Positions 1 to 12,485 of a stretch of 20,866 bases of DNA are shown here, piece by piece. Below the pieces are notes generated by a model. The model ran no database searches and was not told the origin of the DNA. It saw nothing but the letters and a program-made list of their open reading frames with translations. A program made the translations under genes and the position numbers. The stretch's first letter is position 1. Every line of letters starts with the position of its first letter. Source of the stretch: a virus (taxonomy: Duplodnaviria; Heunggongvirae; Uroviricota; Caudoviricetes); IMG/VR virus record IMGVR_UViG_2534682222_000015, positions 1-20,866 of that record, one strand, 5' to 3'.

Positions 1-1284
1 TTACTTCTTCGCCTCTGCAACCACTTTACTACCCACGCCGCGGTTATTGTATTCCCACATGCGGTTGTAGTTAGTGTCATTCAGATTGCGCTGTATTTCG
101 TCGTTATCATCTACGCTGCCGGTATTACCCGCAAACGGACGATTAGAGATCACCGCATCGGCCCACGGTTTAGCCGTGTTAAAACCTTCGTTGATGGCGC
201 TATCACGGATCACCACCTGACCGTTGGTATTGGCATCAACATCCAGCGAGCGGCCCAGTTGCGCCACACCATCACCGAAAGCATTGAAACGGCTGTTTAC
301 GGCGAGGAAACCGTAGTAAATGTTGGACAGCGTAGCCGGTGCAAACACATACGCTTCTTGCTGAGTACGTGAGTTCACCACGCGGAATTCGGTGTTATCG
401 AACACCACTGCGCCGCGACCAGAAACGATATCCACATCCCCTTCAATGTAGCTGTTGGTCACCAGCGTACGCGGCTGACGATTCGTTTCCAGACGGTTCT
501 GCACACCGCTGTTGGTGACAAAGAAGGTGTTCTGACGACCGAGAATGTTAACGTTGTTAATCTGTACCTGGTCACCATCAGTACGCAGTGCCACCGCCGG
601 ATGGTTACCTGCATCTACGCTATCGCCCAGCGTGTTTTCGATGGTCAGATTTTGCAGTTGCAGGCCATTGTTTTGTGACCAGAAGACCGCAGAGCAGAGA
701 ACACCGATACTGTCGCTGCGTTTGCTCTGGCAGCTATCGTACATATACCACGCTGGTTTACCTGGCATATATTTGCCGCGCGGGTTGACGTCGTGACGCC
801 AGTCGGCAGGGCTCATGCCACCATCAAGGGAAAGCCCAATCTTCACATCAATCGGTTTTTCACCTGTACCGTACAGAGTAATTCCACCCGGAGCGGCAGG
901 GACATATACCGTTCCCTGATACTCACCAGGCATCACGGCAATATACTGGCGCTTGTTGGTACGCTTGATAATTGCCGCATCTACCGCCGCCTGAATCGTG
1001 GTATGCGTTACACCTTGAGTGCCCGCCGGGCCGACAACAAAGTCAGGTTGCGCAGGCAGGGTAATCGGGGAAGGATTCCACGCTGCAGCACCTGGTGTCA
1101 GGGATGCAAAATAGTGTTGAGCATCGAAATTCTGCGCTTCTTTTGCCGACAGAATCGGGCGAGAAGAGGTACCAGGCGCGGTTTGATCAGAAGGACGTTG
1201 ATCGGGCGGGGTTGAGCTACAGGCGGTCAGCGTCACGCCAAAAGCCAATGCCAGCGCCAGACGGGAAACTGAAAATGTGTTCAC
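1..1284 (-). CDS. ybhC: Host outer-membrane lipoprotein YbhC (pectinesterase-like acyl-CoA thioesterase), complete, GTG start
   Basis: 427-aa ORF with lipoprotein signal (…LTACSS); recognised from memory as E. coli YbhC, the gene flanking attB-lambda on the gal side; position immediately outside attL core. Confidence 0.85.
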   Translation of the reverse strand: MNTFSVSRLALALAFGVTLTACSSTPPDQRPSDQTAPGTSSRPILSAKEAQNFDAQHYFASLTPGAAAWNPSPITLPAQPDFVVGPAGTQGVTHTTIQAAVDAAIIKRTNKRQYIAVMPGEYQGTVYVPAAPGGITLYGTGEKPIDVKIGLSLDGGMSPADWRHDVNPRGKYMPGKPAWYMYDSCQSKRSDSIGVLCSAVFWSQNNGLQLQNLTIENTLGDSVDAGNHPAVALRTDGDQVQINNVNILGRQNTFFVTNSGVQNRLETNRQPRTLVTNSYIEGDVDIVSGRGAVVFDNTEFRVVNSRTQQEAYVFAPATLSNIYYGFLAVNSRFNAFGDGVAQLGRSLDVDANTNGQVVIRDSAINEGFNTAKPWADAVISNRPFAGNTGSVDDNDEIQRNLNDTNYNRMWEYNNRGVGSKVVAEAKK

Positions 1285-2992: not shown

Positions 2993-3391
2993 TTAGCCAT
3001 GGTTAACCTCCTGCTCAATATTTTTAAGGTCATTTTCCGCATACAGTATTGCAGTCCTTGCTGCTCGCAACCGTGCTTTGGTGTTCTTTTCTTCGCGCTC
3101 AAGGTTGGCTACAGACTCGCGCAACTCATCACGGCGACGATGGAGTTGCTCAATCTCAGTGACGATATGCTCACCATCAGTAGCTACCTGCAGGATGTGC
3201 TCGAAGGGGTCAATAACGCAGCCGCACTTTGTGCAACGAACAACGCGATCAGTTTCACAAACCTCGATAGCCCGATGCTTACAGCTATGTTGTATGTAGT
3301 TTTTTCTGTCAGTTACAGTGATGTTCAGCAGTTTCTCTTCATTGCGCTTTGGCTGCACCAGAGAGATGACGTTGTCGCTTTCATTTTCCAT
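2993..3391 (-). CDS. Hypothetical protein with Cys-rich zinc-ribbon-like segment (C…C…CxxCxC) and C-terminal coiled-coil
   Basis: 132-aa ORF, GGAGG RBS, start overlaps stop of upstream gene (translational coupling). Confidence 0.6.
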   Translation of the reverse strand: MENESDNVISLVQPKRNEEKLLNITVTDRKNYIQHSCKHRAIEVCETDRVVRCTKCGCVIDPFEHILQVATDGEHIVTEIEQLHRRRDELRESVANLEREEKNTKARLRAARTAILYAENDLKNIEQEVNHG

Positions 3392-7269: not shown

Positions 7270-8238
7270 TTAGTAGGTTATTTTTGTTGCGAATACTTCG
7301 CCTTTTACGATGGCTGTTATGATATTTTTAGCAACATCTTCTGATGCGCCAACCTTGATAAGGTCAGCAAGTATTTTGTTATTTACTTCTTTCCGGTGAG
7401 CTTTATCCTTTGCTCTACACTCTTCCTCTTCCTTGATTCTTTTTTCTTCTGCTATTCTGGCTTGCTCTTTTGCTTCAGCCTCGCGCCGGATTCGTTCAGC
7501 CTCCTCCTGTGCTTTTCGGCGTTCTGCTTCAATTGCCGCCTGCTTTTCTCTTTCAGCTCGTTCTGCTGCCTCTTTTGCTTCGCGCTGTGCTCGTTGCTCG
7601 GCTTCAATGCGTTCACGCTCTGCACGTTCCGCTGCGGCCTTAGCTTCTGCTTCTCGCCTTGCTGCTGCTTCAATTTCGGCTTTTGCCTTTGCTTCGGCTT
7701 CTGCTCTGGCTTTCTCTTCAGCTTCTCTTTTTAAGCGTTCTTCATGCTCTCGCTTTTCCTGCTCCGCTTTGAGTCTTGCCTCTTCTCTTTGGCGGTCAAA
7801 TTCGCGATCCATCAAAATAGCTATTTCATGGTCAGACTCAATTTGCTTTGCGAGAGCTTCAGCTGCTGCCTTAGCTTCTTCTTCGGCTTTAATCCGTGCC
7901 TGTTCCTCCTCATAATCAGTAAGAGGCTGGCGTGCCTTGGATTTCAGCTCATCAAGGCGATCACGCACTGTCTTGCGGTTGGCATCAATTAGCTTTGGAA
8001 TTTCCTTCAGTTCAGCAACAAGGTCTTTTCCAAGACCATCGAGATATGTTTTCGTCTGCGCAACTTTATACGCCAGAGAAGCGATCTCCTTTCTGCCCTT
8101 TGCCGTTGTGATATCAGGCACAAAGGACATAACTTCACGTTCAACCCTTTGAAGGATTTCTTCAATCTGGTCGGCAGACTGAAATACAGTCATTGCATTT
8201 GCTTTTTCAATAACAACTAAATCTGTTACTTCACTCAT
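7270..8238 (-). CDS. Hypothetical protein with long E/R/K/A-rich predicted single alpha-helix / coiled-coil core (322 aa)
   Basis: GGAGGA RBS; central about 140 residues are almost exclusively E, A, K, R, Q; globular N- and C-terminal ends. Confidence 0.65.
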   Translation of the reverse strand: MSEVTDLVVIEKANAMTVFQSADQIEEILQRVEREVMSFVPDITTAKGRKEIASLAYKVAQTKTYLDGLGKDLVAELKEIPKLIDANRKTVRDRLDELKSKARQPLTDYEEEQARIKAEEEAKAAAEALAKQIESDHEIAILMDREFDRQREEARLKAEQEKREHEERLKREAEEKARAEAEAKAKAEIEAAARREAEAKAAAERAERERIEAEQRAQREAKEAAERAEREKQAAIEAERRKAQEEAERIRREAEAKEQARIAEEKRIKEEEECRAKDKAHRKEVNNKILADLIKVGASEDVAKNIITAIVKGEVFATKITY

Positions 8239-8896: not shown

Positions 8897-8924
8897 GCCA
8901 AAAATAAAGGCCGACTATGCGGCC
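8897..8924 (-). terminator. Intrinsic terminator-like hairpin (GGCCG-loop-CGGCC + U-run) overlapping the stop of the 207-aa gene
   Basis: Inverted repeat 8909-8924 with A-run 8901-8908 on plus strand. Confidence 0.4.
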
Positions 8925-9538
8925 TCGGAAGGAAGTCCAATCATCTTATTCAAATCTTCTACCCGTAAAGCAGGAAGTGCTGTACTTGCTTTATCTGCTT
9001 CTTTTGGTAGCAACTCTTTGCTTTCAGGCCAAACTTCAATAAGTCGCTTAACTGTTGTGACTGAGTTCAAAGCAGCCCATACATTTGATTCGATATCCTT
9101 TTTCTTGGCTTCAAGTTTTTGTTGCAATGCGCAGATTTCATCAAACCTTTTTGTTATTTCGTGTTCTGCGCTAAACATGCATTTATCTTCGTTCGGAGCA
9201 GGGAGCAATATATCTTCGCCGTTGCCGTCTTTCCCATATGAAAGCCATCCAACCCTTCTGCCAGATACAGTCAGATAAATTGAAGTAGAACGAACATCGT
9301 ATGAGTAAAATGAACATCCCATCTTTCCAAGTTCTTCACTTATAGCTACCAACTTGGATGATAACTGATCCACTTCCTCAGTTTTCTTTTTACCGCCAAA
9401 CGCAATAACTCTGGCGTCAAGTGCAAGCTGGTTCTTTAACTTTGTTACTTCTTCAAGTTCAGTGAAAACCCCAGACTTAATTAAAGCGTTACGAGCGATT
9501 ATCTCTTTCATTCTCGTAGTTAAGCGGATTGATGACAT
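8915..9538 (-). CDS. Hypothetical protein (207 aa from MSSIRLTTRMKEII…), translationally coupled to N; occupies the sieB-like slot
   Basis: GAGAGGA RBS; only 11 nt after N stop; AT-rich; track ORF extends 20 codons further upstream into N. Confidence 0.6.
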   Translation of the reverse strand: MSSIRLTTRMKEIIARNALIKSGVFTELEEVTKLKNQLALDARVIAFGGKKKTEEVDQLSSKLVAISEELGKMGCSFYSYDVRSTSIYLTVSGRRVGWLSYGKDGNGEDILLPAPNEDKCMFSAEHEITKRFDEICALQQKLEAKKKDIESNVWAALNSVTTVKRLIEVWPESKELLPKEADKASTALPALRVEDLNKMIGLPSEAA

Positions 9539-9549
9539 ATTAATTCCTC

Positions 9550-9876
9550 TCAAATAAGTGGTTTGCTGCCTAATTTCATTTTCTGGCGACCAACACAAGT
9601 CACCCCCATTTCACTGCGTGGCTTGCTGTACCATGTGCGCTGATTCTTGCGCTCAATACGTTGCAGGTTGCTTTCAATCTGTTCGTGGTATTCAGCCAGC
9701 ACCGTAAGGTCTATCTGATTCAGTGCGCTTTCTACTCGTGATTTCGGTTTGCGATTCAGCGAGAGAATAGGGCGGTTAACTGGTTTTGCGCTTACCCCAA
9801 CCAACAGGGGATTTGCTGCTTTCCATTGAGCCTGTTTCTCTGCGCGACGTTCGCGGCGGCGTGCTTGTGCATCCAT
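9550..9876 (-). CDS. N: Antitermination protein N (lambda-like, 108 aa)
   Basis: MDAQARRRERRAEKQAQWKAANPLLVGVSAKPVNRPILSLNRKPKSRVESALN… matches lambda N from memory; AGGAG RBS; nutL upstream. Confidence 0.9.
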   Translation of the reverse strand: MDAQARRRERRAEKQAQWKAANPLLVGVSAKPVNRPILSLNRKPKSRVESALNQIDLTVLAEYHEQIESNLQRIERKNQRTWYSKPRSEMGVTCVGRQKMKLGSKPLI

Positions 9877-10048
9877 CTTGATTCTCCTGTCAGTTAGCTT
9901 TGGTGGTGTGGTAGGTGGGAGACCCATTTCGACCTGCTTCGGCCGACTTCAATTCGGCAATAGTTCCGCAGGCCTCGCCGCTTTACGTGCGACATATTCC
10001 CATCCATGAACCCTTCACCACACCCCAAAGCCTTCTGCTTTGAATGCT

Positions 10049-10078
10049 GCGCTTTTTCAGCGCCAGATTTTTAAGAGC
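10049..10078 (-). promoter_or_regulatory. nutL: nutL: boxB hairpin (minus-strand GCGCTGAAAAAGCGC, 10049-10063) and boxA-like GCTCTTAAA (about 10070-10078)
   Basis: Read directly; boxB differs from lambda nutL boxB (GCCCTGAAGAAGGGC) at the stem but keeps the GAAAAA loop. Confidence 0.65.
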
Positions 10079-10118
10079 TTCACCGTCCTGGTGAGTAGTG
10101 CGTCCTGCTGATGGAGCA

Positions 10119-10187
10119 ATATTCACGTATTGTGATTTAAATGTCAATCACGATATGTGTATAATTTATTTATCACACGATATGTGT
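10119..10187 (-). promoter_or_regulatory. PL promoter (-35 TTGACA at 10143-10148, -10 GAATAT at 10119-10124, minus strand) with three OL operator sites of form TCAC-N5-GTG(A/T) at 10123-10135, 10148-10160, 10175-10187
   Basis: Three similar 13-bp dyads spaced about 25 bp apart; same dyad family recurs in OR. Confidence 0.6.
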
Positions 10188-10258
10188 ATGTTTTTAGTGG
10201 GGTAAATAATTTCAAAAAAACGTGATATGCTCAGAAAAACATCAAAGAGGGCATTGTT

Positions 10259-10483
10259 ATGGGGCTGGGAATGGATATGGGTAGGGATGAACTGCTGGAA
10301 GACCGCGCAGCTTTCATCGCTGGCGAGATTGGCGGCGCGGTTGTTGAGTTGATTATCGGAGGGGTGGTGATTAATAGGGATGCGATTGTGGATAGCTTGG
10401 AGACCAAGAGGAGGGCGGTGGGTAATGTTATTCACAAGGGATTGCTGAGGGATGCTGCGGAGTTCGTGAGGAAAGGACAGTAA
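10259..10483 (+). CDS. Questionable small ORF (74 aa) in G-rich, C-poor spacer between OL and the rex-slot gene terminator
   Basis: AAAGAGGG RBS-like sequence 7 nt upstream of ATG; strongly skewed composition; may be non-coding. Confidence 0.2.
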   Translation: MGLGMDMGRDELLEDRAAFIAGEIGGAVVELIIGGVVINRDAIVDSLETKRRAVGNVIHKGLLRDAAEFVRKGQ

Positions 10484-10504
10484 AAACCCGGCGCGATGGC
10501 CGGG
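10482..10504 (-). terminator. Intrinsic terminator of the cI / rex-slot operon (CCCGGC-loop-GCCGGG + U5 on minus strand)
   Basis: Hairpin 10487-10504 immediately after the stop at 10511-10513, A-run 10482-10486 on plus strand. Confidence 0.6.
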
Positions 10505-10510
10505 TCACTA

Positions 10511-11353
10511 TTAAGGCTTCTTCTTATCGTGCTTTACTAGTGCTTTGTGTGTTTTCTTGATACTGCTTCTAACTTTTTGAATTTTATCTTGAGACAACTT
10601 AATACTCTCAGGTGCCGTTCCTGTGTTGGCAATCATTACATTTCTAACAGATCTTCCAACTGTTTCAGCGGCATTTTCAAGTTGCACCTGCCCCTTAAGA
10701 TTCTGGTTTCTTATTCTTGCTTCTGTTTGTGTTATTCGGAAAATGTTAGCAGCAAGTTCTTCGCTGCCCATAAAATCAAGCATTGTTCCATCTTTTTTAG
10801 TTAGTCCTTTGCGGGCTTTCAATTGCGTGAGATTCATGTTGTACATCCCGCGATATCCTGCATTTTGAAAAAGACCATAGTCTACTACGCCATGCTTATG
10901 TGCCACGTGGCTAAGAGTCTTTTCTCTTGAAGTGATTTCACCACGCAAATAAACTCGGTTAACTGCATCATGGTTATGATACGCCGCTTGAATTTCTGCT
11001 GCCAGACCAGCAAAGTATGCCTGAGCATTTGCAACTTTCTGATTGCTAATATCGCCATTCATTACAGTTAAATAGCAAGCAAATCGAGTTAATTTAAAGT
11101 CATTTTGCGCATTCTCAGAAGGCATCTGAATGAAGTTGTCGTAGACGGGGATATCAAGGTTAACGCATACAGACGTTGCCTTGTTGATGGCTTTTAGTAT
11201 CTGGTCCATACCATTATACCCAAGCATCATCGCCAGATCAGATGCGAACCAATAGGTAACACCATTCTCCCTGGCGAAATCATCAAATGTTAACTGTGAT
11301 GCGTCATCGAAAACGGTAATTTGCCTACTCATATCACACCCAAACTTACTCAT
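10511..11353 (-). CDS. Bro-N/KilA-N-like N-terminal domain protein, possibly DinD/RhuM-family (280 aa), in the position lambda uses for rexAB
   Basis: N-terminal motif …TYWFASDLAMMLGY… typical of Bro-N type domains; C-terminal segments (RFACYLTVMNGD, FQNAGYRGMY, MLDFMGSEELAANIFRITQTE) resemble, from memory only, E. coli DinD-like proteins; AAGGGA RBS. Confidence 0.7.
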   Translation of the reverse strand: MSKFGCDMSRQITVFDDASQLTFDDFARENGVTYWFASDLAMMLGYNGMDQILKAINKATSVCVNLDIPVYDNFIQMPSENAQNDFKLTRFACYLTVMNGDISNQKVANAQAYFAGLAAEIQAAYHNHDAVNRVYLRGEITSREKTLSHVAHKHGVVDYGLFQNAGYRGMYNMNLTQLKARKGLTKKDGTMLDFMGSEELAANIFRITQTEARIRNQNLKGQVQLENAAETVGRSVRNVMIANTGTAPESIKLSQDKIQKVRSSIKKTHKALVKHDKKKP

Positions 11354-11425
11354 TGAACATCCCTTATTTTAATATAAATTAGAAAAATTGTCCGTTGATT
11401 ATCGCAAGCCATTAGAGCTTGACCT

Positions 11426-11454
11426 CTCATCACCCAAACGTCTCATCAGGCCAC
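11426..11454. repeat. Direct repeat copy 1 (degenerate duplicate of the last about 30-45 bp of cI), 87 bp downstream of cI
   Basis: ctcatcacccaaacgtctcatcaggccac vs copy 2 cttatcacccaaacgtctcttcaggccac (27/29 identical), with further shared gcaacaacc nearby. Confidence 0.7.
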
Positions 11455-11512
11455 CATAAGCACGATCGCAACAACCGAGAGCAAAGTAACCACGCCTACT
11501 ATCAGATATTCT

Positions 11513-11541
11513 CTTATCACCCAAACGTCTCTTCAGGCCAC
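11513..11541. repeat. Direct repeat copy 2, spanning the cI stop codon and last 7 codons
   Basis: See copy 1. Confidence 0.7.
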
Positions 11542-12164
11542 TGTGACGCAACAACCTTACCAACAACCCGACAGTGCTCATTACACGGCATCATGGGGAA
11601 TTGAGGATTCAATGGCTGGAGAAATATCTGCCCGCTGTCCTTGATCAGTTTCTTAAACGTGAATTCATCGCCACCTAATCTGGCGATACAGAAATCACCA
11701 GGGTCAACCGGTTCATCTGGATCTACAAGAATTAGCATTCCTTCAGGGAAGCTAGGCTTTGAACCAGCAGGAGCCGTCATGGAATGGCCTTCAACCTCAA
11801 GCCAGAATGCATTGTCGCTGGCTTTCTTTGTCGTGCTTACCCATCTCTCTGCATCACGTTCGGTGAATGTGCGAAATTCAGGTGAGAACATACCAGCTTG
11901 TACATGCGAGAAAACCGGGTACTCAAATTTCTGGAATACTGGCCCATTGTCTTCGCCAAAAAGAATAAGCGAAGGAGACACCTTAAGAACCTCAGCAAGC
12001 GTTAACGCATCATCAGCGCTAACTTTTCGCGTGCCAAGCTCATAATTCCCCAGTCGTGAAGGCGCAGCCCAGCCGCAAAGGTTGGCTAACTTTGCTTGGC
12101 TGAGTCCTTTAGCTTCGCGAAGGGACTTTATCCTCTCGCCGATAATTTCATGCATAGTTTTCAT
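11517..12164 (-). CDS. cI: CI-type prophage repressor (N-terminal HTH, C-terminal LexA/S24-like autocleavage domain with GHSM Ser and FKK Lys); non-lambda immunity
   Basis: 215 aa; C-terminal domain resembles P22 C2 (GDSMTAPAG…PEGM.ILVDP…ATFKKL…PLNPQ.P); located divergent from cro across operators. Confidence 0.85.
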
Positions 12165-12171
12165 GCCTCAA

Positions 12172-12243
12172 TAATATCACGCCATGTGATTGTGGTATCT
12201 ACACAATATGGTGTTGACAGTTAATCACATATCGTGAATAATT
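12172..12243. promoter_or_regulatory. OR/PR/PRM region: operator dyads TCAC-N5-GTGA at 12177-12189 and 12225-12237 plus weaker ACAC-N5-GGTG at 12201-12213; PR -35 TTGACA 12214-12219, -10 ATAATT 12238-12243
   Basis: Read directly; same dyad family as OL; classical three-operator divergent arrangement between cI and cro. Confidence 0.6.
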
Positions 12244-12269: not shown

Positions 12270-12485
12270 ATGAACAACATTGCAGAGCAGCGAAAAAAAA
12301 TTGGGATTTCGCAAGCCGCTCTGGCTTCTGCCATAGGCTGGGGGCAGTCGCGAATTGCCAATTATGAGCTTGATATCCGCACCCCTGGTCTGCCGGAAAG
12401 TCGCCTTATTGTCGAGGGCCTGAACCGTCTCGGTTGCAATTGCTCCCTTGATGACGTTTTCCCACCAACTACCAGCGCAGCCTAA
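12270..12485 (+). CDS. cro: Cro-like HTH repressor (71 aa)
   Basis: Small HTH (…IGISQAALASAIGWGQSRIANYE…) first gene of PR operon, opposite cI. Confidence 0.75.
   Translation: MNNIAEQRKKIGISQAALASAIGWGQSRIANYELDIRTPGLPESRLIVEGLNRLGCNCSLDDVFPPTTSAA

Follow-up and report, generated by a model that had tools for sequence, protein, structure and literature searches.

Which role, if any, is played by the G-rich, C-poor DNA that lies between the left operator OL and the terminator of the cI operon in this lambdoid phage? The window, the whole 20,866-nt stretch of DNA analyzed here, comes from IMG/VR virus record IMGVR_UViG_2534682222_000015 (Caudoviricetes). A first-pass annotation of its sequence had treated positions 10190-10486 as a strand-skewed spacer, and had offered a Rho utilization (rut) site, a small Gly-rich protein and G-quadruplexes as possible readings. 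Our analysis indicates that the interval is occupied by a conserved gene. The fuller reading that we prefer, to which we assign a probability of about 0.55, is that of an accessory-gene cassette, complete in itself, within a conserved lambdoid slot, with an AriR-like product and a position-linked poverty in C that may act as a Rho backstop.

Base composition and flanks of the interval

On the plus strand, the interval 10190-10486 contains 107 G, 35 C, 82 A and 73 T, giving a GC skew of +0.507. Scanned in every 297-nt window, the 20.9-kb sequence had a mean skew of 0.00 and a standard deviation of 0.128, which places the interval at about 4 SD. Skews equal to or above its value were found in 0.07% of these windows, all beginning at 10177-10190, and the peak of 0.52 belonged to the one beginning at 10179. 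The interval also contains 11 runs of GGG or longer, with GGGGCTGGGAATGGATATGGGTAGGG at 10261-10286. The strong G-rich, C-poor skew of the plus strand that had been claimed (sliding-window skew +0.51, the maximum of the window) and the cluster of G-tracts were thus both confirmed.

The context claimed for the interval, with OL on one side and the cI-operon terminator on the other, was borne out when the operators, PL and the hairpin were located (Table 1). The OL operators are of the TCACGATATGTG type, and the repeats recur at OR (12177-12240). At the other end, the tIMM-type hairpin has an 8-bp stem with 6 GC pairs, and folding of the 51 nt that include it yields -17.6 kcal/mol on the minus strand (z -3.35). 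The U-run of this minus-strand terminator overlaps the stop codon of the small gene described below; on the plus strand of the window, no U-tract follows the 10485-10506 hairpin. The sequence AAAACCCGGCGC...GGCCGGG is kept in lambda, phi80, HK225 and HK639, and in many of the other loci.

Table 1. Features in and around the interval between OL and the cI-operon terminator (positions in the window).
Feature	Position	Strand	Basis or remark
Lambda-type N	9550-9927	-	
OL, three operators overlapping PL	~10120-10137, 10147-10164, 10173-10190		left cassette boundary
PL	-35 TTGACA 10148-10143	-	TTGACA-N18-AATATT, from promoter scan
Junction TGTATGTTTTT directly right of OL3	10184-10195		common to lambda and homologous locus L009 (alignments)
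Candidate Rho-loading (rut-like) stretch	10190-10484	-	C 36%, G 12%; leftward read-through RNA
Predicted extended -10 promoter TGATATGCT of the small gene	10223-10231	+	TGnTATGCT conservation
Conserved leader AAAAACATCA	10235-10244	+	cross-locus consensus cAaAAAAACAnCA
Shine-Dalgarno AGAGGG	10246-10251	+	purine-rich Shine-Dalgarno after cAaAAAAACAnCA across loci
74-aa protein gene	10259-10483	+	PHROG 3975 member, predicted AriR/YmgB-like three-helix fold
G-tract cluster, relaxed G4 motif	10261-10286	+	loops 2, 9, 2; G4Hunter 1.72
tIMM-type intrinsic terminator of the cI operon	10485-10506	-	GC-rich hairpin, then UUUUUAC
280-aa gene	10511-11353	-	
cI	11517-12164	-	

A conserved small gene

The label "spacer" given by the first-pass annotation proved wrong, since a conserved protein-coding gene fills about 75% of the interval. 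The RBS-preceded 74-aa ORF was recovered as described, with AGAGGG 7 nt upstream of the ATG. Translation could also begin in the same frame at 10271 or 10277, and the conserved core comprises the 68 aa encoded from 10277. The stretch 10261-10286, which holds these alternative start codons, encodes a clade-specific N-terminal extension, MGLGMDMGR. The PHROG 3975 HMM matched the window protein with an E-value of 2.1e-36, residues 7-74 corresponding to profile positions 1-68 of 68. Homologues of the small protein form 585 clusters at 90% identity, spread across Enterobacterales, and the family comprises 69 clusters at 50% identity. The identity of its members ranges over 40-99% while their length stays fixed at 65-74 aa, and the dN/dS of the gene is 0.03-0.14 (12 pairs, with dS up to saturation). 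The small Gly-rich plus-strand protein suggested earlier therefore stands as a protein, by its PHROG membership, 585 homologues, dN/dS and fixed synteny, while the glycine content was overstated (10 Gly in 74 residues). Judged by its conservation, the small gene between OL and the cI-operon terminator is real.

Nucleotide searches gave a narrower picture, and homologues surfaced at the protein level only. Megablast of 10100-10520 against phage GenBank records returned no match, and against 5,426 complete E. coli genomes the nutL/PL side alone was matched and the small gene never. Pfam and NCBIfam contained no match to the small protein of the window, PADLOC returned no defence-family match to it, and Rfam (E up to 1) gave no RNA family in 9400-11000. 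Two antisense ORFs of 89 and 58 aa were rejected as genes, such frames being expected in pyrimidine-rich RNA and being interrupted in many homologues. The immunity regions of wild lambda-immunity phages were reportedly treated by Degnan et al. in 2007, and the small ORF may already have been described there.

Predicted expression signals

The predicted extended -10 promoter TGATATGCT, of the sigma-70 pattern TGnTAnnnT, ends 27 nt upstream of the first ATG. Among 25 loci that were located by their protein sequence only, 17 carry a perfect TGnTATGCT and 23 match it in at least 8 of 9 positions. The 19-nt promoter motif is unique in the window, where 0 occurrences are expected, and 67 of its 120 matches in IMG/VR have an ORF of the family directly downstream. 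The anchored consensus of the 25 loci also revealed, in most relatives, a ATTTATTTTT box located some 12 nt before the TG of the -10. The -10 hexamer, TATGCT, would fit the TAYRCT form of sigma-S promoters. The TGATATGCT site was not listed by the generic promoter scan, in which a -35 match is obligatory. From the conservation of the motif we infer that TGATATGCT has promoter activity, and rightward transcription of the small gene would start near 10238. The predicted order is the extended -10 TGATATGCT, a short A-rich leader, the Shine-Dalgarno and the 68-74-aa ORF, whose end would fall within the A-run of the tIMM-type hairpin. Transcription of the small cassette would proceed rightward, diverging from that of PL and converging with that of cI.

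Two other interpretations of the conserved upstream elements were discarded. If the conserved ATGCT marked an upstream start codon, it should share the reading frame of the ORF; it does so in about 8 of 25 loci, close to the chance level of one-third. The AT box has reportedly been read as an IHF site by Giladi et al.; its by-eye fit to the IHF consensus is poor.

Fold and relationship to AriR/YmgB

The AF2 model of the small protein has a pLDDT of 89. Its top Foldseek match, and the sole match with E < 1, is 2OXL (TM 0.86), on which the model superposes at 0.6-1.4 A. A search of PDB sequences with the family profile A3 (hmmsearch) retrieved 2OXL alone, with an E-value of 7.5e-5, and hhalign of A3 against an AriR alignment gave a probability of 84-86%, not above 95%, and E-values of 5e-6 to 8e-6, a moderate significance. 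The profile similarity covers 48 columns and includes the G-x-A-V...L...G..(I/V)N..(I) core. Pfam PF10798 (YmgB) did not match the window protein at E up to 0.1 and matched 2 of 27 family members weakly (best E 0.016, compared with 6.8e-26 for the E. coli AriR control), and a BFVD fold search with the small protein found nothing below E 0.35. Taken together, the model and the profiles argue, with moderate confidence, that the product is a soluble three-helix protein and a remote relative of AriR/YmgB.

As a small "connector", E. coli AriR/YmgB activates the Rcs system and binds to SpoT. Its residue R74 is needed for SpoT binding (PMC10704370). In the ungapped hhalign register (23-70 vs 33-80), AriR R74 falls on R64 of the small protein, which is invariant in alignment A1; the A3 consensus reads RDAAE. 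By this alignment, R64 may be the counterpart of the SpoT-binding Arg of AriR. By analogy, the phage small protein might bind a host regulator in the lysogen. Among the matches listed in a literature search on AriR/YmgB and prophages, no AriR-like prophage gene was described.

A fixed slot with several occupants

Related loci were searched for with an 8-sequence alignment of the small gene. HK225 gp41, an unannotated ORF of phi80 and HK639_46 are each found immediately to the right of PL, on the other strand. Of 24 further loci, 22 have a convergent cI-like repressor on the right, at a distance of 29-2157 nt. The repressors beside the small gene resemble four different reference repressors. 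Across the loci compared, its place is fixed, with OL/PL on one side and the 3' end of the cI operon on the other, in at least four repressor types.

The slot is also held by other genes, and in some phages by none. The slot genes of family B have a skew of 0.28-0.40 (four-fold sites G 199 vs C 22), and those encoding DUF2767 proteins have a skew of 0.32-0.45. Gene-less spacers from several immunity types contain 9-16 C per 150 nt. In lambda, the non-coding OL3-tIMM spacer (153 nt; G 40, C 11, T 65, A 37) has a skew of 0.57, the maximum of the lambda locus. This spacer, between OL3 and rexB, resembles the window in its hairpin, in its left junction TGTATGTTTTT...ATTTATTTTT and in its strand skew, whereas the promoter and most of the ORF are lost and only GGGCATTGTT and ATCGTGAGGcAAAG are left as relics. 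Such alignments suggest that the 170-bp OL3-rexB spacer of lambda is a remnant of the small-gene cassette. Since homology links the gene-less lambda-type spacers with each other and they derive in part from the gene, their C-poor composition may be inherited.

Sources of the strand skew

From the protein sequence and background codon usage, the skew expected for the small gene is 0.25 +/- 0.06, compared with the 0.51 observed (p < 0.0005). The same codon test gave p < 0.05 in 19 of 25 homologues, counts across the family not being independent because its members are related. At four-fold sites, family A has G 304, T 193, C 133 and A 112, while the flanking genes have G 3768 vs C 4078. The share of AGG among Arg codons is 26% in the family vs 9% in the flanking genes; in the small gene of the window, AGG is used at 6 of 7 Arg, and G-ending codons are favoured. 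In-frame 207-nt pieces of long genes never exceeded a skew of 0.315. Thus, about half of the skew comes from amino-acid composition (GNN codons plus Arg and Lys) and the remainder from synonymous choice. Because five homologues (L009-L012 and L014) have little or no synonymous skew, the synonymous constraint is not universal. The skew goes with position, since the other gene families of the slot and the gene-less spacer of lambda are C-poor too.

A candidate Rho-loading stretch on the leftward RNA

A rut site is expected to offer at least about 80 nt of C-rich, G-poor RNA with little secondary structure. In the minus-strand RNA, the 78-nt window 10346-10423 has 35 C and 6 G, and its C/G ratio of 5.8 is the highest among 78-nt windows on either strand. 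The leftward RNA of the interval has a minimum free energy of -33.5 kcal/mol over 295 nt and is the least structured, ranking 1st of 1030 windows (mean -77.8, sd 12.4). The candidate rut position is downstream of the last stop codon and of the terminator of the cI operon. Antisense open frames exist there, and they are not consistently open in homologues. Composition and low structure would thus fit a rut site on the leftward RNA, and these results suggest that the small-protein gene and a rut-like layer coexist rather than being alternatives.

Under our preferred reading, the likeliest explanation of the C-poor slot is its effect on leftward RNA. A leftward transcript escaping the cI-operon terminator would be C-rich, G-poor, unstructured and untranslated, that is, a substrate for Rho loading. 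Rho would load on the escaped transcript, and read-through would therefore stop short of PL/nutL. Such insulation would prevent the expression of N and kil from the prophage. As far as sequence features can indicate, Rho may act at the slot. It is also seen that a good intrinsic terminator already precedes the region, a counterpoint to a Rho backstop.

A stronger version, which we regard as tentative and somewhat short of even odds, is that the slot is selected, whatever its occupant, for read-through RNA that loads Rho. The rightward small gene would therefore be dual-coded, antisense termination having shaped its synonymous sites and also some of its amino-acid composition, and the lambda spacer would be a gene-less remnant in which only this function survives.

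Alternative explanations

The minus-strand composition is rut-like and long open frames are common here on both strands, as would be expected if the interval were a non-coding spacer with a rut role only and the 74-aa ORF a chance frame in purine-rich DNA. A chance frame would not be expected to show the low dN/dS, the constant length of 65-74 aa at 40-99% identity, the conserved Shine-Dalgarno and the confident fold prediction found for this ORF, and homologues do not consistently keep the antisense frames open. By these signs of conservation the chance-frame explanation is already refuted, and we give it almost no weight. G-quadruplexes, another proposal of the first-pass annotation, would form from the G-tracts in DNA or mRNA and regulate PL, OL looping or translation. 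G4Hunter peaks at 1.72, the maximum of the window, on the relaxed motif, but the central loop of this motif is 9 nt long and a canonical motif (four G3+ tracts, loops <=7) is absent from the window. Among 24 homologous loci, the canonical motif occurs in 0 and the relaxed motif in 1, and the tracts sit in the clade-specific N-terminal extension. A G-quadruplex was rejected because the motif is not conserved, and such a role appears extremely improbable.

The skew might instead be a by-product of the encoded protein and its codon habits with no role for RNA or DNA, the lambda-type spacers being recent relics of the gene. This is rather unlikely in our view, although the amino-acid sequence alone gives about half of the skew and the synonymous part is missing in five homologues. 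Of 25 homologues, 19 show a significant synonymous excess, clades that are mutually saturated at synonymous sites among them, and the same bias appears in family B and in DUF2767, the latter without significant profile similarity. The gene ends are recognizable in the spacer of lambda and the gene-less spacers resemble one another; however, the middle of the lambda spacer aligns unconvincingly with the gene, and yet the whole spacer has 11 C in 153 nt. We consider a mutational origin, in which frequent rightward transcription leads to C-to-T deamination on the exposed plus (non-template) strand, to be distinctly improbable. It is undermined by the lambda-type spacers, which are C-poor though they are without TGnTATGCT, by family B, in which T is close to A (66 vs 69) despite the strongest G:C ratio (9:1), and by the slot gene of phage BTP1, which is only moderately expressed (TPM 17-53). 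In its favor, the promoter motif is strongly conserved and G exceeds C at the four-fold sites of family A and DUF2767; T also exceeds A at these sites (families A and C) and in the lambda spacer (T 65 vs A 37), which is the pattern expected of cytosine deamination on the non-template strand.

Significance

Under the preferred reading, that of an accessory-gene cassette with a Rho backstop, a widespread "hypothetical" prophage protein gains a fold and a biochemical lead, namely the possible binding of a host regulator (SpoT or an Rcs component), as in AriR. Although its position is constant and the regulatory region around it is among the most intensively studied in biology, the small gene has no annotation in phi80. 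The rut idea is sharpened into a position-linked avoidance of C that is common to different genes and to non-coding DNA. If true, this would be a clear case of codon choice in a protein gene constrained by antisense transcription termination, and lysogenic and lytic transcription units would be insulated from each other at a second level.

Comparison with known systems

AriR/YmgB (2OXL; PF10798; paralogues YmgA and YcgZ) is, like the predicted small protein, a small cytoplasmic three-helix protein. The identity between them is about 20-25%. The small protein scores below the Pfam gathering threshold and is without the N-terminal extension of about 28 residues found in AriR. AriR belongs to the bluRF-regulated ycgZ-ymgABC operon, whereas the small protein is encoded in a prophage immunity region.

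STMMW_03522 of phage BTP1, a DUF2767 gene (NCBI name "fumarate hydratase FumD"), occupies the identical slot and shares its AT box; the leader is related, and the terminator there is of the tIMM type. DUF2767 proteins are similar in size to the small protein and their coding strand is C-poor too. However, they show no significant profile similarity to the small-gene family (hhalign E 0.056), and the -10 of the STMMW_03522 promoter has diverged. In the lysogen, STMMW_03522 is expressed at TPM 17-53 in all 17 conditions (supplement of PMC7067206); these values describe a different family with a diverged promoter, not the small-gene family. A literature search for STMMW_03522 found no paper naming it.

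The rac prophage has a Rho-dependent terminator, trac, which halts PRM-racR transcripts before kil (PMC4150792). It concerns the same insulation problem as the rut reading of our interval, that is, transcription from the repressor promoter vs the lethal kil of the left operon. Unlike trac, which has been proven by experiment and is situated within racR, the candidate rut comes after an intrinsic terminator, and a convergent protein gene overlaps it.

Prophage accessory genes between cI and N are expressed in lysogens (PMC7067206). Lambda rexAB and BTP1 bstA, "moron" genes of the cI-N interval, belong to the same mosaic region as the small gene. The small-gene cassette appears to carry its own promoter and terminator. 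While rexAB and bstA are co-transcribed leftward with cI, the small gene is on the opposite strand, past their terminator and beside OL. Unlike rexAB and bstA, it keeps its place whatever the cargo of the cI operon, and even where that operon carries no cargo.

Strand Skew and the Immunity Region

The region 10190-10486 contains 107 G and 35 C residues on the plus strand, giving a GC skew of +0.507, compared with a mean of 0.00 (sd 0.128) over all 297-nt windows. This value was reached by only 0.07% of the windows, all of them here, and the highest-skew window begins at 10179. The sliding-window calculation thus bears out the strand skew reported in the first-pass annotation. The G-tract clusters that it described were plentiful, with a G4Hunter peak at 10261, and the ribosome-binding site that it placed before the ORF was found as an AGAGGG Shine-Dalgarno sequence. 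Its suggestion of G-quadruplex formation was rejected. The window holds a single relaxed motif, whose loops measure 2, 9 and 2 nt; of 24 homologous loci, one had a relaxed motif and no locus had the canonical one.

The window is an immunity region of the lambdoid type, and the skewed region is bordered by OL3 on one side and the terminator hairpin on the other. For the 280-aa gene, PADLOC gives a match to PDC-S13, a candidate defence family (E 6e-85); the gene also has a BRO-N domain and is similar to E. coli DinD (194 bits in NCBIfam, under the 242-bit cutoff). Its likely role is anti-phage defence by the prophage, with expression from PRM. At the 3' end of the repressor gene lies a 31-nt direct repeat (copies 94% identical and 87 nt apart) whose appearance suggests a scar left by recombination. 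The skewed region has a mirror image in the rightward RNA that spans the junction of cI and the 280-aa gene. This RNA has 29% C, 13% G and the lowest GC skew of the window (-0.33). It is the second least structured in the window (-39.5 kcal/mol per 295 nt), and might load Rho onto rightward transcripts that head, antisense, towards cI. Further left, the 322-aa protein has a long, highly charged E/A/K/R repeat region that causes spurious long ORFs on the opposite strand. Its gene gives the most extreme AT skew of the window (-0.75 at 7501-7800), and no match to it is on record in Pfam or PADLOC.

Features of the immunity region and of compared loci
Feature	Position	Strand	Remarks
322-aa protein gene	7270-8238	-	
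Nmad5-domain gene	8915-9598	-	Nucleotide modification associated domain 5 (E 2e-70); directly downstream of N in the early left operon
Lambda-type N gene	9550-9927	-	Pfam N36
OL	about 10120-10190		Three TCACGATATGTG-type operators; copies again at OR, 12177-12240
PL		-	TTGACA-N18-AATATT; overlaps OL operators
Promoter-like site	10136-10165	+	Inside OL1/OL2, back to back with PL; TTTAAA-N18-TATAAT (10/12 matches)
Conserved block 1			ATTTATTTTT box; abuts OL3
Conserved block 2			TGnTATGCT, about 12 nt beyond ATTTATTTTT box; reads as extended -10
Conserved block 3			cAaAAAAACAnCA, between TGnTATGCT and Shine-Dalgarno sequence
Conserved block 4			Shine-Dalgarno sequence, after cAaAAAAACAnCA
Small gene	10259-10483	+	
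Conserved block 5			AAAACCCGGCGC-N3-GGCCGGG, beyond stop codon
Hairpin	10485-10506		U-run on minus strand; terminator of cI operon
280-aa gene	10511-11353	-	Co-oriented with cI; rexAB/bstA position
C-rich rightward RNA	11241-11575	+	Junction of cI and 280-aa gene
Direct repeat, downstream copy	11424-11454		Another cI 3' end, differing slightly (WPDETFG, then stop)
Direct repeat, cI copy	11511-11541		Last residues of cI (WPEETFG, then stop)
cI repressor	11517-12164	-	HTH and S24 peptidase domains
cro	12270-12485	+	
cII		+	
phi80 small gene	L002 (NC_021190) 2998-3207; record 33348-33557		Intact, unannotated, 69 aa; between OL3 and gene 40A
Lambda OL3-rexB spacer	L034 (NC_001416) 653-825		Relic matches to cassette
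Family B (MSNEDEFFAEMHPQIAQVIG...)	Same slot		Related to PHROG 3975 family (hhalign probability 90%)
DUF2767 proteins	Same slot; BTP1 (L155) 2531-2701; IMG/VR loci L090, L123, L129, L146, L147		NCBI name 'FumD'
Fourth small family	Same slot		

A Conserved Small Gene Next to OL

The ORF 10259-10483 is a real protein-coding gene, a reading to which we assign a probability of about 95%. It matches PHROG 3975 (E 2e-36), has 585 homologues at E <= 1e-3 in a collection of 5.8 billion proteins, all named hypothetical, and shows dN/dS values of 0.03-0.14 in 12 pairs (Nei-Gojobori; dS from 0.27 up to saturation). The region is therefore not the spacer that it was first taken for, and the small plus-strand protein, then offered as an alternative, becomes the primary explanation. 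Clustering the homologues at 50% identity leaves 69 representatives, and almost all of these have 60-75 aa. The third in-frame ATG (10277) marks the start of the conserved core, and the MGLGMD extension, which bears the G tracts, is specific to the clade of the window protein.

The position of the gene is also conserved. By tblastn it was present in HK225 (gp41), phi80, HK639 (HK639_46), Salmonella phage SW-37 and Enterobacter phages. In the HK225, phi80 and HK639 records it directly adjoins PL/OL on the right, is encoded on the other strand from PL, and is convergent with whatever follows cI, be it HK97-like gp48/49, phi80 40A or three HK639 genes. In the phi80 copy the TGATATGCT element is perfect and the Shine-Dalgarno sequence is GGAG. 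Among 24 further loci (three phage records and 21 of 22 bacterial loci), a convergent cI-like repressor was found 29-2157 nt right of the gene in 22, usually with cII next, and in three the gene adjoins cI with nothing between. Between them, these repressors are similar to four different reference repressors. The exact window protein occurs in both P22-like and lambda-like prophages, which share the block from N to cII and have mosaic flanks.

Five conserved non-coding blocks were read from the DNA alignment across immunity types. In loci found via the protein alone, TGnTATGCT was perfect in 17 of 25. The 19-nt motif is single-copy in the window, where none would be expected by chance, and of the 120 loci that an exact-pattern scan found in IMG/VR, 67 have the family ORF directly downstream. 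These sequence patterns indicate that the small gene probably has its own promoter. The promoter-like site inside OL1/OL2, if active, would be a second, repressor-controlled promoter towards it. On the plus strand (10485-10530), the shared hairpin is followed by CACTATTAAGG with no T-run, at a place where the tails of HK225, lambda and another compared locus (L009) are T-rich, so that small-gene transcripts in this phage may read on, antisense, into the 280-aa gene.

Many motif loci lacking the family ORF hold other small ORFs in the same slot. In BTP1, the DUF2767 gene STMMW_03522 occupies this very slot, flanked by N and bstA, and has a diverged -10 element. Its transcripts were reported at TPM 17-53 in all 17 conditions, and it was classed as accessory (D23580 RNA-seq; supplement of PMC7067206), which points indirectly to transcription of slot genes in lysogens. 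NCBIfam and RefSeq call the DUF2767 slot genes 'fumarate hydratase FumD', an enzymatic name that seems doubtful for a helical protein of roughly 57-69 aa from a prophage immunity region.

A Probable Relation to AriR/YmgB

The small protein is likely to have an AriR-like fold and to be a remote homologue of AriR/YmgB. AlphaFold2, run on a 27-sequence alignment, predicted helices at residues 5-33, 40-53 and 57-72 (pLDDT 89), and Foldseek gave a sole match with E < 1 (TM 0.86). The family profile found the AriR structure 2OXL alone among 177,635 PDB sequences (E 7.5e-5), and hhalign, with 48 columns aligned without gaps, gave 84-86% probability against AriR or an AriR alignment (E 5e-6 to 8e-6); YcgZ and YmgA aligned in the same register, but weakly. 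The window protein was below threshold for the Pfam YmgB model, and we therefore class it as a remote relative with the same fold rather than as a Pfam member. AriR/YmgB binds SpoT directly and drives ppGpp accumulation, and its R74G variant loses the SpoT effect with Rcs activation intact (PMC10704370). R74 aligns onto the conserved R64 of the phage protein. A connector-type function on a host regulator is a speculative suggestion, the target being one that we infer. A phage-borne branch of the fold fits the suggestion of Tschowri et al. that the bluRF-ycgZ-ymgAB region was acquired by way of phages (PMC3509220).

Sources of the Strand Skew

The skew within the gene has both amino-acid and synonymous components. 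By codon position it is 0.71, 0.31 and 0.43 in the 68-codon core, and in the full 74-codon ORF G occupies 39/75 first and 34/75 third positions and AGG accounts for six of the seven Arg codons. Synonymous resampling that kept the protein sequence and used the codon usage of 128 flanking long ORFs gave an expected skew of 0.25 +/- 0.06 versus 0.51 observed (p < 0.0005); in ordinary genes, amino-acid composition gives 0.04 +/- 0.05. Skew exceeded expectation (p < 0.05) in 19 of 25 family members (mean z 2.4). Four-fold sites of the family carry 304 G versus 133 C (background 3768 versus 4078), and AGG makes up 26% of its Arg codons versus 9% in the background. In-frame 207-nt pieces of long genes have a skew of 0.05 +/- 0.10, none above 0.315, and the family ranges from 0.27 to 0.51.

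Other occupants of the slot are skewed as well: family B by 0.28-0.40 (four-fold G 199 versus C 22), DUF2767 genes by 0.32-0.45 (73 versus 25) and the fourth family by 0.16-0.36. The gene-less 153 nt between OL3 and tIMM in lambda contain 40 G and 11 C, a skew of +0.57 that is the maximum of the lambda immunity locus. This spacer retains the left junction TGTATGTTTTT...GAATTTATTTTTT, a counterpart of the Shine-Dalgarno-to-start region (GGGCATTGTT), and ATCGTGAGGcAAAG with the tIMM hairpin, corresponding to the last codons of the small gene; it is without the -10 element and the ORF body. Its retained sequence suggests a relic of the cassette. A scan with the terminator sequence found gene-less spacers of the lambda type behind several different operator sets, all C-poor (C 9-16, G 39-49 per 150 nt), which are homologous to one another and therefore not independent samples. 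Elsewhere, flanks of the same terminator sequence have a skew mostly near zero (range -0.37 to +0.6). On balance, we favor a nucleotide constraint linked to the position.

The skew could instead be inherited composition without function; the synonymous bias is kept in clades that are mutually saturated at synonymous sites, and five members (loci L009-L012 and L014) are without it. Another possible source is the deamination of cytosine on the non-template strand where a gene is transcribed, in agreement with the excess of T over A at four-fold sites of the PHROG 3975 and DUF2767 families and in the non-coding spacer of lambda. However, family B, in which T and A are roughly equal, and the lambda relics, which lack the promoter, fit deamination less well. 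Rho is a possible, still tentative cause of the position-linked constraint. A leftward RNA across the region would have 36% C and 12% G, and would include the 78-nt window with the top C/G ratio on either strand (5.8, at 10346-10423). At -33.5 kcal/mol over 295 nt, its predicted fold ranks as the least structured among 1030 windows (mean -77.8, sd 12.4), compared with -85.2 kcal/mol for the sense mRNA.

This RNA would come from a stretch that follows both the final stop codon and the intrinsic terminator of the cI operon and that precedes PL and nutL. Without a further stop, transcription that got past the hairpin would pass through PL in the same direction and reach N and kil. Given this placement, together with the composition, the fold, the comparative data and the precedent of the rac prophage, the Rho utilisation site proposed in the first-pass annotation is a plausible second layer overlapping the small gene. 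In the rac prophage, the Rho-dependent terminator trac, whose failure is lethal, blocks such run-through (PMC4150792), and thus solves the same read-through problem as the candidate stretch would here.
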